A stretch of 63,164 nt of DNA, filler included, from Collodictyon triciliatum (taxonomy: Eukaryota), in assembly GCA_043381765.1 (NCBI GenBank). It is 27 parts of 27 records of this genome, joined end to end, with 100 filler letters (N's around TTAATTAATTAA, not from the genome) between each part and the next. Parts side by side here need not be neighbours in the genome. Positions count along the whole stretch, not along the records: positions 9,393 to 11,638 come from JBHJMP010009215.1; 26 more parts are not named here. One strand, written 5' to 3'. The notes beneath the pieces were generated by a model. That model ran no database searches, was not told where the DNA came from, and saw only the letters and a list, made by a program, of their open reading frames with translations. Each line of letters opens with the position of its first letter. The first letter of the stretch is position 1. Made by a program: the position numbers and the translations under genes. Below, piece after piece: positions 10,084 to 51,472 of the stretch.

Positions 10084-11638
10084 TTAAGCTGTGGCTTTCT
10101 GTCTCCACTCAGCTGCTTTCTCGGTGTCCTTTCCAATACCCCATCCATTCTCATAGCATTCAGCAACAATAATCACAGCCTGTGGATATTTGTGTTTTTC
10201 ACCAATTTTGTCTCCCCATCCGCCCAGGATATCTTCCTTCATTTCAACCATTTCTTTCAAAACATTGAATGCCTCCTTTGAGCCTTGTTGTGCTAGTTGC
10301 TTCAGTTTTTCAAAGTTTTCAGCTTTTCCAAACCACTCAGCTGCTTTCTCGGTGTCCTTCCCAACACCCCATCCATTCTCATAGCACTCAGCAACAATAG
10401 AAACAGCCTGTGGATATTTGTATTTTTCACCAATTTTACTTCCATATGTCTTGTTTGCCCATTTGCTAAGAATGTTTTCCTTAATTTCAGCCATTTCTTT
10501 CAAAACATTGAATGCATCCTTTGAGCCTTGTTGAGCTAGTTGCTTCAGTTTTTCAAAGTTTTTATATGCTTTTAGAGCCAATAGATTCCACCCAGCTGCT
10601 TTCTCGGTGTCCTTCTCAACACCCCATCCATTTTTGTAACATTCAGCAACGATAGAGACAACCTGTGTATATATGTATCCGCCATATTTATACTTCATTT
10701 CAGCCATTTCCTTCAAGACATTGAATGCCACCTTTGAGCCTTGTTGTGCTAGTTGCTTAAATTTGTCAAAATCTAATGATAATTTTGGAAAGGCGACATA
10801 TCTCCAATAATAGGCCTTCTCAGTGTCCTTCTCAACACCCCATGCATTCTCATAGCACTCAGCCATCATTTGAGCCTGGAACTTGGTGAACTTACCCTGC
10901 TCACAATAGGCAGCAAAGTCCGCATCAAAAGAAAAAGCACCCATAGAAAGTAAGAGGGATTTGTTGAATCGACTCAATCTTGCGACATTTCTGATTAGGA
11001 TGTTACCACCTTGTAGCTTTCTTGGGCCGATAATCTGGACTGTCTTTGCATCTTGGATTCTGTTGGTGTCAATCATGTTCATCGCATCGCTTGTTCTGTT
11101 AAATACTGCGATGACTTCGTCTGGCTTTTCTTTCTTGACGAGGTATTTTCCTTGGGTGTAGGTCACTTCTGACTTTTGAAGGCTGTGTGTTTGGTTTCCT
11201 GTGGCTACATCCCAAATACGTATAGTTTTATCCCAACTTCCAGAAGCCAACCACTTTTCTCCATTCGGTCCTTGAATGCTGCAAACACTATTGACACATT
11301 CTGTATGACCTTCTAATGTTTTGATTTGGTTTCCTGTGGCCACATCCCAAATACGTAATGTTTTATCCCAACTTCCAGAAGCCAGCCAGTTCTCACCATT
11401 CGGCCCTTGAATACTGCAAACACTGTCAACTACCCTTATATGACCTTCTAATGTTTTGATTTGGTTTCCTGTGGCTACATCCCAAATACGTATTGTTTTA
11501 TCACCACTTCCAGAAGCCAACCAACTTTCACCATTCGGTCCTTGAATACTGCAAACACTCCTGACATCTCTTGTATGGCCTTCTAATATTTTGATTTGGT
11601 TTCCTGTGGCTACATCCCAAATACGTATTGTTTTATCA
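10084..11638 (-). CDS. WD40 tandem-repeat protein (45-aa, 135-bp near-identical units) with C-terminal Sel1-like repeats; 5' end missing
   Basis: The frame is open to the contig edge. Repeat unit: LASGSxDKTIRIWDVATGNQIKTLEGHxxxVxSVCSIQGPNGExW. A linker ends in NILIRNVARLSRFNKSLLLSMGA, followed by four AECYENGWGVEKDTEKAAEW-type units. No introns. Confidence 0.9.
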
Positions 11639-11964
11639 NNNNNNNNNNNNNNNNNNNNNNNNNNNNNNNNNNNNNNNNNNNNTTAATTAATTAANNNNNN
11701 NNNNNNNNNNNNNNNNNNNNNNNNNNNNNNNNNNNNNNCTTTCTCTTTCTCTTTCTCTTTCTCTTTCTCTTTCTCTTTCTCTTTCTCTTTCTCTTTCTCT
11801 TTCTCTTTCTCTTTCTCTTTCTCTTTCTCTTTCTCTTTCAACAGATTAAAACATTAAGACACTTATAAAGCTAGGAATCACGATTTTATTTGGCCAGCGG
11901 ATATTAGTTTGAATCATCAATCAGGAATGGCTTCCATTAAATCTATCATAAATATTATCAGATT

Positions 11965-19810: not shown

Positions 19811-21297
19811 TTGCAAGGCTCCTTCAAGCAGGTTTGAAGTAACAAAAACAAAAACAAAAACAAAAACAAAAACAAAAACAAAAACAAAAACAAAAACAAA
19901 AACAAAAACAAAGGAAAGCGTCATTAGTCACTAAACCTGATTGTAATGAGAGCAAACAAGTCATAACTGCCAGCAGTTTTGCTGGGTGGCCCAAGCACCT
20001 TGCCTCGTGGATTGTTGTTGTTCTGTTTCGACCTTTACTTCTTTCTCGACGGTCTATGTGGGGTTGGCCGCCCCAGTTCTTTTCGAAATGTGCCGACAAC
20101 GCATCAATTCTGCCAGAGAAACCTGATTCATCTGTCAAGACCCAAAGCAAACATAATATAAATGTGGAAATTATTGCACAGAACTTTTGCCAATTTTCCT
20201 TTTTCCGCTGCCAACCAAAGTACACACAACACCGCGTATCCCGACAAACCACGAATCTTGCGCCCCAACTCGAAGGCACGGAGCCACTCACATGTGGGCA
20301 AATGAGCGCCAAAAGAATTGCCGGTGGTACACCGATGAGTAACCGAGATTCTTTTCGTGGTGAAGAGGAACACACGCAAGCATCTGAGCTGTTTCAGCCC
20401 AAAGCAGGAACCAACGACTCGTTCTGAAATTTCCATAAATGTACTATCAACATCCTCTCACCCACAGTATAGCATGTTGTAATAGCAGAGACAAGACTTA
20501 GAAATTTCAATAAAATTGACTGAAAATGTGCTGGGTATGTAAATTCCGCATATAGTGATACCCATTGAATGTTCTGAGCTAGGCTTGCGAGGAATGCGTC
20601 CGAAAAAAAGGAAAAAGAAAACCAACCGAACCCATGGCGAAAAAACAGGAAATGAGATTCCGGCGGGTGACGTTTTCGGAATAAACAATTTATGAGCTCC
20701 GTTCGCGGGTGGCGTTTGCCTGAAAACCGCCCGGTTGATCAGGGAATAGGATTTTTTTTTTCCTTCGATGCGACAAAGTTCATTTTACTATTGCACTCTG
20801 TGAAGTGACTCCATAAGAAAGAAAAAGAGAAAGAATAGAAAAAGAGAAAGAAAAAGAGAAAGAGAAAGAATAGAAAAAGAGAAAGAATAGAAAAAGAGAA
20901 AGAATAGAAAAAGAGAAAGAATAGAAAAAGAGAAAGAGAAAGAGAAAGAGAAAGAGAAAGAGAAAGAGAAAGAGAAAGAGAAAGAGAAAGAGAAAGAGAA
21001 AGAGAAAGAGAAAGAGAAAGANNNNNNNNNNNNNNNNNNNNNNNNNNNNNNNNNNNNNNNNNNNNTTAATTAATTAANNNNNNNNNNNNNNNNNNNNNNN
21101 NNNNNNNNNNNNNNNNNNNNNGTTTTTGAAAAGTAAAAAAAAAATATATTTTTAATATTTGAGTGTTTTAATGGGGGGTTAAATTCTTTTTTTTTTTTTT
21201 TTTTTTTTTTTGGTCTTGTCTTGTTGTGGTTTGTCGCTTCTGAACTGAAATGGTTATGGATATTCAAGTACATGCATTTATGTTGGATTGTTTTCAC

Positions 21298-49135: not shown

Positions 49136-50221
49136 NNNNNNNNNNNNNNNNNNNNNNNNNNNNNNNNNNNNNNNNNNNNTTAATTAATTAANNNNNNNNN
49201 NNNNNNNNNNNNNNNNNNNNNNNNNNNNNNNNNNNTGGTTGCGGGCTTCGTGGTTCTGGGGCAGTTTGTGCTTACCTCGAAGGCGGACGTAGCAGCCGGC
49301 TCCGTGCAGGTTCTGCTCCTGGGCTCTCTTTGATTGGCGGATCGGTGTGGCCGAGGGGTCTTGGTCGAGTTGTGTACTCCATTCTTGCGCGTTTGACTGT
49401 GTGTTGTTCCCGACAAGATCGAAGAGCTTTTATTTTAGTATCCTTTAGTATCCTTTAATATAAAGTCACTCCAATCAAATCAATCTGCACACCGCCTCGG
49501 CCTCTCCTGTCTGCCTCCCTTACCTACTCCGCACGTCTCTGCAGTTATTACCACACTGTTAATTGTTTGCCGAATATTTTTCGCCAAAAAAAGAAATAAA
49601 AAGGGATTCTGCGTAGTCATGACAAATAAATTGTCGGTTATCCCCATTTGGTATGATAGAACAAACGGAGGCAAGAAGCGAGTCAACTACTTTTGTCGCC
49701 TTCCACAATGCGATCCATAGCCTCCAAACCACCAAGTCAAACACACGCTATCCAGAGTTAGTATGGGTGGAGCCGCGTCGAANNNNNNNNNNNNNNNNNN
49801 NNNNNNNNNNNNNNNNNNNNNNNNNNNNNNNNNNNNNNNNNNNNNNNNNNNNNNNNNNNNNNNNNNNNNNNNNNNNNNNNNNNNNNNNNNNNNNNNNNNN
49901 NNNNNNNNNNNNNNNNNNNNNNNNNNNNNNNNNNNNNNNNNNNNNNNNNNNNNNNNNNNNNNNNNNNNNNNNNNNNNNNNNNNNNNNNNNNNNNNNNNNN
50001 NNNNNNNNNNNNNNNNNNNNNNNNNNNNNNNNNNNNNNNNNNNNNNNNNNNNNNNNNNNNNNNNNNNNNNNNNNNNNNNNNNNNNNNNNNNNNNNNNNNN
50101 NNNNNNNNNNNNNNNNNNNNNNNNNNNNNNNNNNNNNNNNNNNNNNNNNNNNNNNNNNNNNNNNNNNNNNNNNNNNNNNNNNNNNNNNNNNNNNNNNNNN
50201 NNGGTTTCGCGACGACGTTAA

Positions 50222-51041
50222 TTGTATTGCTTCTCTCTCTTTCTACTTTATTTCTGTGGGATTTGCGACACGCAGGTCCGTCGCCCTCGGGCAGGATCTG
50301 CTCAAAAGGTCCAGACGAGCAAATCCACCTCAATCCCAACACAGAAACCCACACCGGACTTACCTGGCCCGATAGCGAAAAAGATACAGCCCGCCCCACA
50401 TGAAACTGATCGAGGCAACCAAACTGCCGCCAAACAGGACACAGGAAAGACTCCTCCAAAATCTTTGATTGCAGAAACTAAAGACTACAGCCAGGAAACC
50501 AGGAAACAAGAGCTTGACGCCAAAGTATCGACCGAATCAAATATCACAGAGACTAAAGTGCCGGGCCTGGTTATAACACAGGAAAAGCCATCCAGCGAAG
50601 ACGACCGTGCTAACGAGGCGAGAAATGCACGGGAAGAAACTATCGCAACAGAGCCTGAAAATCAACAACTTGACTATGGAATTGATGGAGTTATCTCACC
50701 TAAGGGCAAGTTAAGGCTGGTTGCTTCGGTCTCACAATCCAGAGGAATGGAAGAAGATAGGAATATACGCATATTCATATCTTCTACGTTCGCCGATATG
50801 CAAGGAGATAGAAATGCTTTGTTCTTGCATACATTCCCGCTCATACGCGATATGTGTTTGAGAAGAGGTGTAACGGTTACTGAGGTGTTATATATATATA
50901 TATCTAAATAACTCAGAAATTTTATCAAAATTCAAATGTCCCTACCCATGTCGAAAATGTATGTATTCATCTGATCTAATCGAATGCTCTCAGGTAGATT
51001 TACGCTGGGGAATAACTTTGGAAGAATCCGAGAACGGAAAG
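50222..51041 (+). CDS. DUF4062-domain protein (NPHP3/TEP1/NWD-type STAND NTPase N-terminus), partial
   Basis: RNIRIFISSTFADMQGDRNALFLHTFPLIRDMCLRRGVTVTE|VDLRWGITLEESENGK. It is preceded by a long disordered region and an internal N-gap (49783-50202). Confidence 0.85.
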
Positions 51042-51096
51042 GTGATTGCATCTATTCAAAAGCTATGAATCGTTCTGAGCACAAATTCAATGGTCA

Positions 51097-51472
51097 AAAT
51101 GTAAAAAATGTAAAAAAAAATGTAAAAAAAATAATGTAAAAAAATAATGTAAAAAAATAATGTAAAAAAATAATGTAAAAAAATAATGTAAAAAAATAAT
51201 GTAAAAAAATGTAAAAAAAATGTAAAAAAAATGTAAAAAAAATGTAAAAAAAATGTAAAAAAATGTAAAAAAAATGTAAAAAAAATGTAAAAAAAATGTA
51301 AAAAAAATGTAAAAAAATGTAAAAAAATGTAAAAATGTCACCATCCTGCACAAAATTGAAAGGAAGAATAAAAAAAATGTAAAAATGTAAAAATGTAAAA
51401 ATGTAAAAATGTAAAAATGTAAAAATGTAAAAATGTAAAAATGTAAAAATGTAAAAATGTAAAAATGTAAAA
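51097..51472 (+). repeat. Degenerate (A)nTGT microsatellite
   Basis: AAAAATGT, AAAAAAATGT and AAAAAATAATGT units; intronic. Confidence 0.9.

Follow-up and report, generated by a model that had tools for sequence, protein, structure and literature searches.

Near-identical WD40 units with HET-E-like variable positions on a Collodictyon triciliatum contig: a candidate sensor region of a NACHT-type protist receptor family

Does a short contig of the protist Collodictyon triciliatum, on which WD40 units of nearly identical sequence differ at a handful of codons, encode part of a diversifying receptor comparable to the fungal HET-E proteins? The question is raised by contig JBHJMP010009215.1, contained in the window analyzed here, a stretch of 63,164 nt from assembly GCA_043381765.1; a preliminary description of this sequence had suggested a candidate receptor similar to the nucleotide-binding oligomerization domain-like receptors (NLRs) and possibly generated by repeat shuffling. 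The window is a chain of 27 unrelated contigs, each 2234–2258 bp long, joined by N44-TTAATTAATTAA-N44 linkers, so that the segments adjoining the contig of interest are uninformative on its gene. The analysis makes it moderately likely that the fragment is the C-terminal sensor third of a multi-copy NACHT-type protein of the STAND class (signal transduction ATPases with numerous domains), from a Diphylleia-related freshwater protist, and that its WD40 array is HET-E-like.

The array occupies the high-coordinate end of the contig, and the break inside it, already noticed in the preliminary description, is real: position 11638 is the final base before the linker. Two points of that description are amended: the coding strand is the minus one, and the array, instead of closing the protein, is followed by some 370 further residues. 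Three full WD40 units of 45 residues and a partial fourth one open the encoded sequence; a blade of degenerate form comes next, then a linker, then Sel1-like repeats, about four in number. The localization of all features is reported in Table 1. Both repeat types score above the Pfam gathering threshold: WD40 (PF00400) with 104.4 bits (cut-off 27) over three stretches, Sel1 (PF08238) with 73.3 bits (cut-off 30.7). Together, the two arrays form a repeat superstructure, as in NLR-like STAND receptors, whose position relative to a nucleoside triphosphatase (NTPase) domain is taken from the relatives described below. A ciliate-type genetic code, where TAA is read as glutamine, was considered and rejected: the frame contains a single TAA, at its end, versus 28 CAA/CAG glutamine codons.

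The repetition is sharply defined. Tandem Repeats Finder reports a period of 135 nt, with 3.3 copies and 88% matches, over positions 11190–11637; a 29-nt core of the unit occurs four times, always within the array, with no occurrence expected (100 shuffles) and none in the other 26 contigs. When the full units are compared in pairs, DNA identity is 87–88%, which is the actual extent of the near-identity previously claimed, corresponding to 16–18 differences per 135 nt. Most of them (10–11) are concentrated in six codons, 18 nt in all, and 6–8 fall in the remaining 117 nt. Eight of the 45 codons (4, 17, 22, 23, 24, 26, 38 and 45) change the encoded amino acid among the three full units, and eight further codons, scattered over the unit, feature synonymous differences only. 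Codons 24 and 26 differ at two or three nucleotides in every pair of units; codon 4 encodes I or L, codon 17 I or T. The strings originally reported (GH-TRD-V-R-S, GH-IRV-V-D-S and GH-TEC-V-N-S, along with G or W after SGS) are exact, and the variable positions indicated after GH and after SGS stand, to which codons 38, 17 and 4, omitted there, are to be added. At the protein level, 91 of 104 residues are identical at an offset of 45, and 87 of 100 in the best window of 100 residues, over the 3.3 visible units. High internal conservation has been defined by Dyrka 2014 as at least 85% identity over at least 100 residues between repeats of one protein (PMC4986451), a level which the units exceed narrowly.

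The position of the variable codons was evaluated on an AlphaFold2 model, generated from a six-sequence alignment, with a mean predicted local distance difference test score (pLDDT) of 78.3, and of 85–96 in the WD40 part. Within each unit, the model places strand c at residues 3–8, strand d at 13–19, the GH-containing d-a loop at 20–24, strand a at 25–32, the a-b loop (GPNGE) at 33–37, strand b at 38–44 and the b-c turn at 45–47. The d-a loop thus holds codons 22–24, and the b-c turn codon 45, with codon 26 falling at the upper end of strand a. WD40 proteins bind their partners by the face that d-a loops and b-c turns form. On the predicted propeller, where mapping of the variable sites had been proposed, codons 22–24, 26 and 45 lie on this top face, and codon 38 on the bottom side. 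Past the full units, five strands are predicted in unit 4 (139–143, 149–153, 157–161, 164–168 and 175–179; pLDDT about 55–86), and the portion beyond its codon 14 is possibly a cryptic, degenerate closing blade. The short strands at 149–179 are modeled with a pLDDT of about 55, the linker at 181–221 is disordered (pLDDT below 50), and residues 223–516 fold into helices. No usable match to residues 146–262 was obtained in the ESM Atlas.

The same regions of the propeller are variable in the fungal proteins. Four positively selected codons have been described in the HET-E family by Paoletti 2007, one pair in the d-a loop and one in the b-c turn (PMC1805685), and positions 10, 11, 12, 14, 30, 32 and 39, in a register starting at strand d, are reported to feature a high ratio of nonsynonymous to synonymous substitution rates (dN/dS) in HET-D/E (PMC12222747, 2025). 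If the GH dipeptide is taken as positions 8 and 9, these seven correspond to codons 22, 23, 24, 26, 45, 2 and 9 of the unit described here: with this inferred register, the eight variable codons include five of the seven (hypergeometric p=8.4e-4). A clustering test in which positions were not preset, but any five-codon window was allowed, gave p=0.06.

The possibility that the units simply vary where constraint is relaxed was evaluated by using, as a reference, 35 units of the 45-residue form, from five proteins of Diphylleia rotans. Fifteen positions are unconstrained in this set (entropy of at least 2.6), including positions of the a-b and c-d loops. In the window units, all of the five unconstrained top-face positions vary, versus two of the ten others (Fisher p=0.007), a pattern which, judging from these sequences, is not simply one of relaxed constraint. 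Nei-Gojobori estimates gave a dN of 0.49–0.68 at the seven codons chosen a priori and a synonymous rate (dS) of 0.14–0.30 at the other 38. A first estimate of dN, 0.75–1.44, had been obtained on six codons chosen post hoc; being biased, it was replaced by the a-priori set. The direction of the rates fits diversifying selection, although only three units are available and dN/dS above 1 is not significant. As to the HET-E-type pattern originally proposed, the sites at which the units vary, on the d-a loop and b-c turn and with five matches out of seven, support it; the excess of dN over dS does not reach significance with three units.

Relatives carrying the remaining parts of the protein were found in D. 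rotans. An exhaustive HMMER search with residues 140–517 gave 2995 matches at E<=1e-3, of which the best 150 were considered. Among them, the best match is the region following the propeller in four proteins, P0135, P0143, P0193 and P0257 (query residues 2–143), a region over which P0124 also aligns. Either this region or the Sel1 double unit is common, among the same 150, to six protein clusters only, all from D. rotans; of the ten proteins looked up, six (P0124, P0135, P0143, P0193, P0257 and P0127) are EukProt (EP00002) transcripts of this species. Identity is 34–52% for the post-propeller region, and 46–48% for the Sel1 double unit (tblastn).

Two of these proteins are full-length. P0135 (2619 residues) contains CH and DUF4062 domains, an NTPase of NACHT/nSTAND1/NPHP3_N type, TPR repeats, about 14–20 WD40 units of 45 residues and the homologous tail. 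Its NACHT domain scores 25.6 bits (E 1.3e-5; Pfam cut-off 26.7), and its DUF4062 part matches the solved TeTIR domain of TEP1 (PDB 11gz, E 2.4e-14), described as a TIR-like NADase effector located directly before NACHT domains (bioRxiv 10.64898/2026.09.21.753143, 2026). P0124 (2169 residues), composed of NACHT, pentapeptide repeats, WD40 units, the homologous post-propeller region and Sel1 repeats, is the closest architectural relative, its C-terminal part being arranged like that of the window gene; no Pfam match was found in its N-terminal region, and its NACHT domain scores 24.6 bits against the same cut-off, over positions 1–165 of the 167 of the model. Because of these NACHT-like NTPases, both full-length relatives are classified as STAND NTPase proteins. 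P0257 starts just past the NTPase region of a P0135-like protein, and thus looks truncated; P0143 (302 residues) contains WD40 units and tail only and, since its start lies inside a unit, is probably truncated as well.

The D. rotans proteins share with the window the 45-residue unit form GHxxxVxSVCxxxGPNGExWLASGSxDKTIRIWD, but their units are less alike: mean identity is 27–45% in four proteins and 67% in P0143, where two units are compared, versus 81% in the window. They are accordingly regarded as relatives, rather than as the same species or gene. Closer sequences were not retrieved in the other searches: a word-index protein search returned generic WD40 proteins only, the best match to the whole protein being 56% over 32% of the query; residues 1–150, compared to shorter proteins, gave 57% at best and no near-identical fragments; a metagenome scan with the C-terminal 378 residues found a single sequence (L001), a 28% Sel1 match, and no longer contig; a PDB sequence search with the whole protein found generic propellers only. 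Within D. rotans, the Sel1 units of another protein, P0275, are identical at 96 of 100 residues at an offset of 66.

An effector-type sequence is also present elsewhere in the window. On the contig at positions 49236–51472, two exon pieces on the plus strand (50741–50885 and 50994–51041), separated by an apparent GT...AG intron (50886–50993), encode a DUF4062/TeTIR-like start, RIFISSTFADMQGDR ... VDLRWGIT, including the RWG motif. The sole PDB match of the first piece is the TEP1 TeTIR domain (11gz, E 8.9e-4), and tblastn aligns it to residues 378–413 of P0135 (E 8.9e-4); its Pfam DUF4062 score, 17.3 bits, is below the cut-off. These exons indicate that the assembly also encodes the effector-type domain of P0135, not linkable to the WD40 gene.

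Additional copies were looked for in four public freshwater or protist sequencing runs, indicated as X1, X2, X3 and X5 (X3 being a metagenome and X5 a metatranscriptome, both from freshwater), by counting contigs at least 85% alike to the stretch under study. None of the runs covers half of it, and contigs number 418 in X1, 373 in X2, 77 in X3 and 130 in X5; those at least 99% alike are 58, 63, 10 and 24, respectively. Position 11525 is overlapped by 43 distinct contigs in X1 and 41 in X2, and codon 38 in the relatives' contigs is mostly N (11525 C>T, 43 X1 contigs). Among the insertion/deletion (indel) positions listed, nine of the nine inside the array fall in or beside the three variable blocks. 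Judging from their sequence, the contigs fit a large family of units, in which a conserved framework surrounds a divergent block. At two joints the step backwards equals one unit exactly (122+13 and 128+7 = 135 nt), on short contigs of unassigned copy and organism; these would fit copies with an extra unit. Runs X1 and X2 come from one study and are labelled as different organisms (A and B), yet each contains about 60 contigs at least 99% like the stretch under study: the two samples may represent identical or very close organisms, or share a contaminant or a prey.

Table 1. Localization of the features of the WD40-Sel1 gene; positions are those of the whole window.
Feature	Position	Strand	Remarks
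Contig with WD40 array (JBHJMP010009215.1)	9393..11638	.	2246 bp; linker on each side
Open reading frame (ORF) P0001, 517 codons	10087..11637	-	From translation; 5' end open at contig end
TAA stop codon	10084..10086	-	Sole TAA of the frame
WD40 unit 1, residues 1–45	11503..11637	-	Framed from DKT; array runs past contig end
WD40 unit 2, residues 46–90	11368..11502	-	
WD40 unit 3, residues 91–135	11233..11367	-	
Unit 4, residues 136–180	11098..11232	-	First 14 codons unit-like, then diverged short beta-strands
Variable block of unit 1, codons 22–26	11560..11574	-	Immediately behind GH, in the d-a loop and the beginning of strand a; indels in relatives' contigs at 11566, 11571
Variable block of unit 2, codons 22–26	11425..11439	-	Indels at 11424, 11429, 11431, 11436, 11438
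Variable block of unit 3, codons 22–26	11290..11304	-	Indels at 11297, 11299
Codon 45	11503..11505 (unit 1), 11368-11370 (unit 2), 11233-11235 (unit 3)	-	G in unit 1, W in units 2 and 3; residue preceding Asp of the b-c turn
Codon 38	11524..11526 (unit 1), 11389-11391 (unit 2), 11254-11256 (unit 3)	-	S, N and K, respectively; first residue of strand b, bottom side, not HET-E-type
Conserved region after propeller, residues 141–281	10795..11217	-	Homologous to Diphylleia rotans proteins only, among the matches considered
Sel1-like helical repeats, residues 259–517	10087..10863	-	Four AECY-anchored units of 72–85 residues, the last shortened by the stop
56-nt intron-like GTAAGT...TTTTAG	10024..10079	-	Begins 4 nt past the stop; X1/X2 contigs join 10006/10018 to 10080

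A number of observations weigh against reading the fragment as the sensor part of a NACHT-type protein with a HET-E-like array. The N-terminal part of the gene lies beyond the contig end, so that no NTPase is seen here. In the relatives, NACHT scores are just below the Pfam cut-off, and in P0193 and P0143, which are perhaps truncated transcripts, an NTPase was not seen. The alignment to the HET register, which sets GH at positions 8 and 9, is itself presumed; codons 2 and 9, the counterparts of HET-type positions 32 and 39, are invariant in the window units, and codon 38 varies, yet points to the bottom side. The comparison of dN to dS gave one-sided Fisher p values of 0.22, 0.018 and 0.36, one of them significant, for three pairs that are not independent, in agreement with the initial caution that selection cannot be shown with so few repeats. 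The numbers of run contigs do not separate units from paralogues and alleles, and may span several organisms. Finally, contigs assembled from short reads are described as unreliable for arrays of this kind (PMC12222747), hence order and number of the units may be wrong.

Three other explanations were considered. The gene may encode an ordinary WD40-Sel1 scaffold, devoid of an NTPase, where a few units were recently duplicated and their surface drifts, with the fold kept by purifying selection. The absence of an NTPase on the contig and of a significant dN/dS above 1 would be expected in this case; surface variability is common to all WD40 families, the D. rotans units reaching entropies of 2.6–3.5 at many positions, and the short relative P0143 is composed of WD40 units and tail only, although this is probably due to truncation. 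Drift, however, does not easily account for family-wide free positions varying so differently on the top face and off it (five of five versus two of ten), nor for codons 24 and 26, changed at two or three nucleotides in every pair when synonymous sites differ by 14–30%; the NACHT-like domain of both full-length relatives also disagrees with a plain scaffold, which is consequently regarded as unlikely. A STAND NTPase could, on the other hand, serve a housekeeping or ciliary signalling function, like animal NPHP3 or NWD1, with similar units reflecting a recent expansion of the array and not a repertoire. Diphylleids are flagellates. The DUF4062/TeTIR, NACHT and TPR domains of P0135 reproduce the layout of the TEP1/NWD/NPHP3 group (10.64898/2026.09.21.753143). 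The dozens of variant units, and the apparent differences in unit number, seen across the four runs, together with the HET-type placement of the variable codons, are at odds with such a function, and make it a quite improbable one.

The variation could also be an artefact, arising from a contig which is chimeric between many paralogous arrays and where units were collapsed or mis-joined. The contig, only 2.2 kb long, does end within the array, hundreds of similar contigs are found in other runs, and Illumina assemblies cannot rebuild such arrays (PMC12222747). Yet its frame of 517 codons is intact; mis-joins may alter order and number of the units, but are unable to generate variable top-face codons within a framework that is conserved; and independent runs diverge, and carry indels, at matching blocks. 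An artefact is thus very hard to reconcile with the data, and its probability is considered minimal.

The sensor part of a NACHT-type STAND protein remains the preferred interpretation. We infer, along with it, an NTPase in this gene, concerted evolution of its units, diversifying selection and a ligand-sensing or immune role; non-self recognition is purely conjectural. For the receptor generated by repeat shuffling, as originally proposed, this means that the NACHT-like NTPases of P0135 and P0124 and the dozens of unit variants in the runs speak in its favor, and that the non-self recognition part has the status just mentioned.

A mechanism may be outlined from the layout of the relatives. 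In these, an N-terminal domain (TeTIR/DUF4062 in one of them) and a NACHT-like NTPase come first; TPR repeats, pentapeptide repeats or both follow, then an extended array of WD40 units of 45 residues, a closing blade of degenerate form, the linker and the Sel1 repeats. The WD40 units would fold into a beta-propeller, able to bind a ligand by its top face, where d-a loops and b-c turns are exposed. Gene conversion or unequal crossing-over, within or between copies, would keep the units near-identical, and the top-face codons (22, 23, 24, 26 and 45), differing from unit to unit, could be reshuffled into new binding surfaces. Once a ligand is bound, the NTPase switch might be released and the N-terminal effector turned on, in the manner of other NLR-like receptors. 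In its broadest form the proposal is a speculative one, and somewhat doubtful: the diphylleids (CRuMs), a freshwater protist lineage of deep branching, would possess a large family of NACHT-type receptors, whose WD40 arrays, diversified by shuffling and by selection on the top face, resemble those of the HET-E/HNWD proteins, evolved independently and are coupled to a Sel1 array and, in some members, to a TeTIR NADase effector, providing a predator made of a single cell with an innate recognition repertoire against viruses, symbionts, prey or kin.

Other features of the gene concern its C-terminal part and the region past the stop. DNA copies of the Sel1 unit are 70–93% alike, with one loop of variable length. 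This part is built of similar double units, where joints of X1, X2 and X3 contigs skip or repeat about 171–274 nt; it may be a second array homogenized within the family. The intron-like sequence past the stop codon is probably a spliced intron of the 3' untranslated region; contigs from intron-less paralogues are an alternative compatible with the same sequences.

For the remainder of the window, GC content ranges from 31 to 48% across the 27 contigs, one of which contains an internal run of 420 N (49783–50202). Contig ends carry long microsatellites rich in purines, of (AAGAA)n-like and of (CTTTCT)n type (9395–9900 and 11739–11839). On the minus strand, an ORF at 21070–21984 matches the 3-beta-hydroxysteroid dehydrogenase/isomerase family (PF01073, E 2.3e-53), another one at 59798–60679 contains a SAP domain (PF02037, E 2.4e-15), and a tRNA gene is found at 31880–31951 (Rfam RF00005, 62.9 bits).

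The literature searched yielded no report of arrays of this kind from diphylleids or from other protists of the CRuMs group, nor of NACHT in Diphylleia rotans or of NACHT-WD40 NLRs in unicellular eukaryotes; a layout composed of NACHT, pentapeptide or TPR repeats, 45-residue WD40 units, cryptic blade and Sel1 repeats was likewise not found described. Since arrays of this type break short-read assemblies, protist genomes probably contain more such families than are counted. Arrays of similar repeats with a hypervariable binding surface are documented to generate recognition diversity in fungal NLR-like proteins, and a sea-urchin NLR with leucine-rich repeats is also mentioned in this context (PMC12222747). 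If the interpretation given here is true, the occurrence of this pattern in a CRuMs-type protist would suggest that the mechanism recurs wherever STAND receptors expand, and would provide an initial entry point to innate recognition in a little-studied supergroup of eukaryotes.

Compared to known systems, generic WD40 propellers, such as WDR5, PkwA and the designed Tako8, share with the window protein the fold and the repeat signature (E 1e-67 to 1e-70, for the WD40 part only), but no architecture beyond the propeller. The TeTIR-NACHT family (TEP1, NWD1, NWD2, TTC41, NPHP3) is closer to P0135, where DUF4062/TeTIR directly precedes the NACHT-like domain, followed by TPR and WD40 repeats; a TeTIR-like start is, moreover, found on another contig of the window. 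The available text on that family (10.64898/2026.09.21.753143), in contrast, makes no mention of highly similar units or of a Sel1 tail, and P0124, the closest architectural relative, has a different N-terminal region, as seen above. The HNWD proteins of Podospora anserina (HET-E along with HET-D and HET-R), involved in NACHT-WD40 allorecognition, differ in several respects: they are fungal, and the one described here belongs to a protist; the window unit, with 45 residues instead of 42, has an a-b loop (GPNGE) three residues longer; its array is followed by the linker and the Sel1 array, and not by the protein end; in the D. rotans relatives, TPR and/or pentapeptide repeats come after the NTPase; a HET domain was not seen; and selection and concerted evolution are, for this gene, only presumed. 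The features shared with HNWD are an internal identity of units of about 85% or more; variable residues on the propeller's top face, right behind GH and preceding the b-c turn Asp; membership of a multi-copy family, whose copies may differ in unit number; a blade, possibly cryptic, after the conserved units; and a NACHT-type NTPase, seen here in the relatives.

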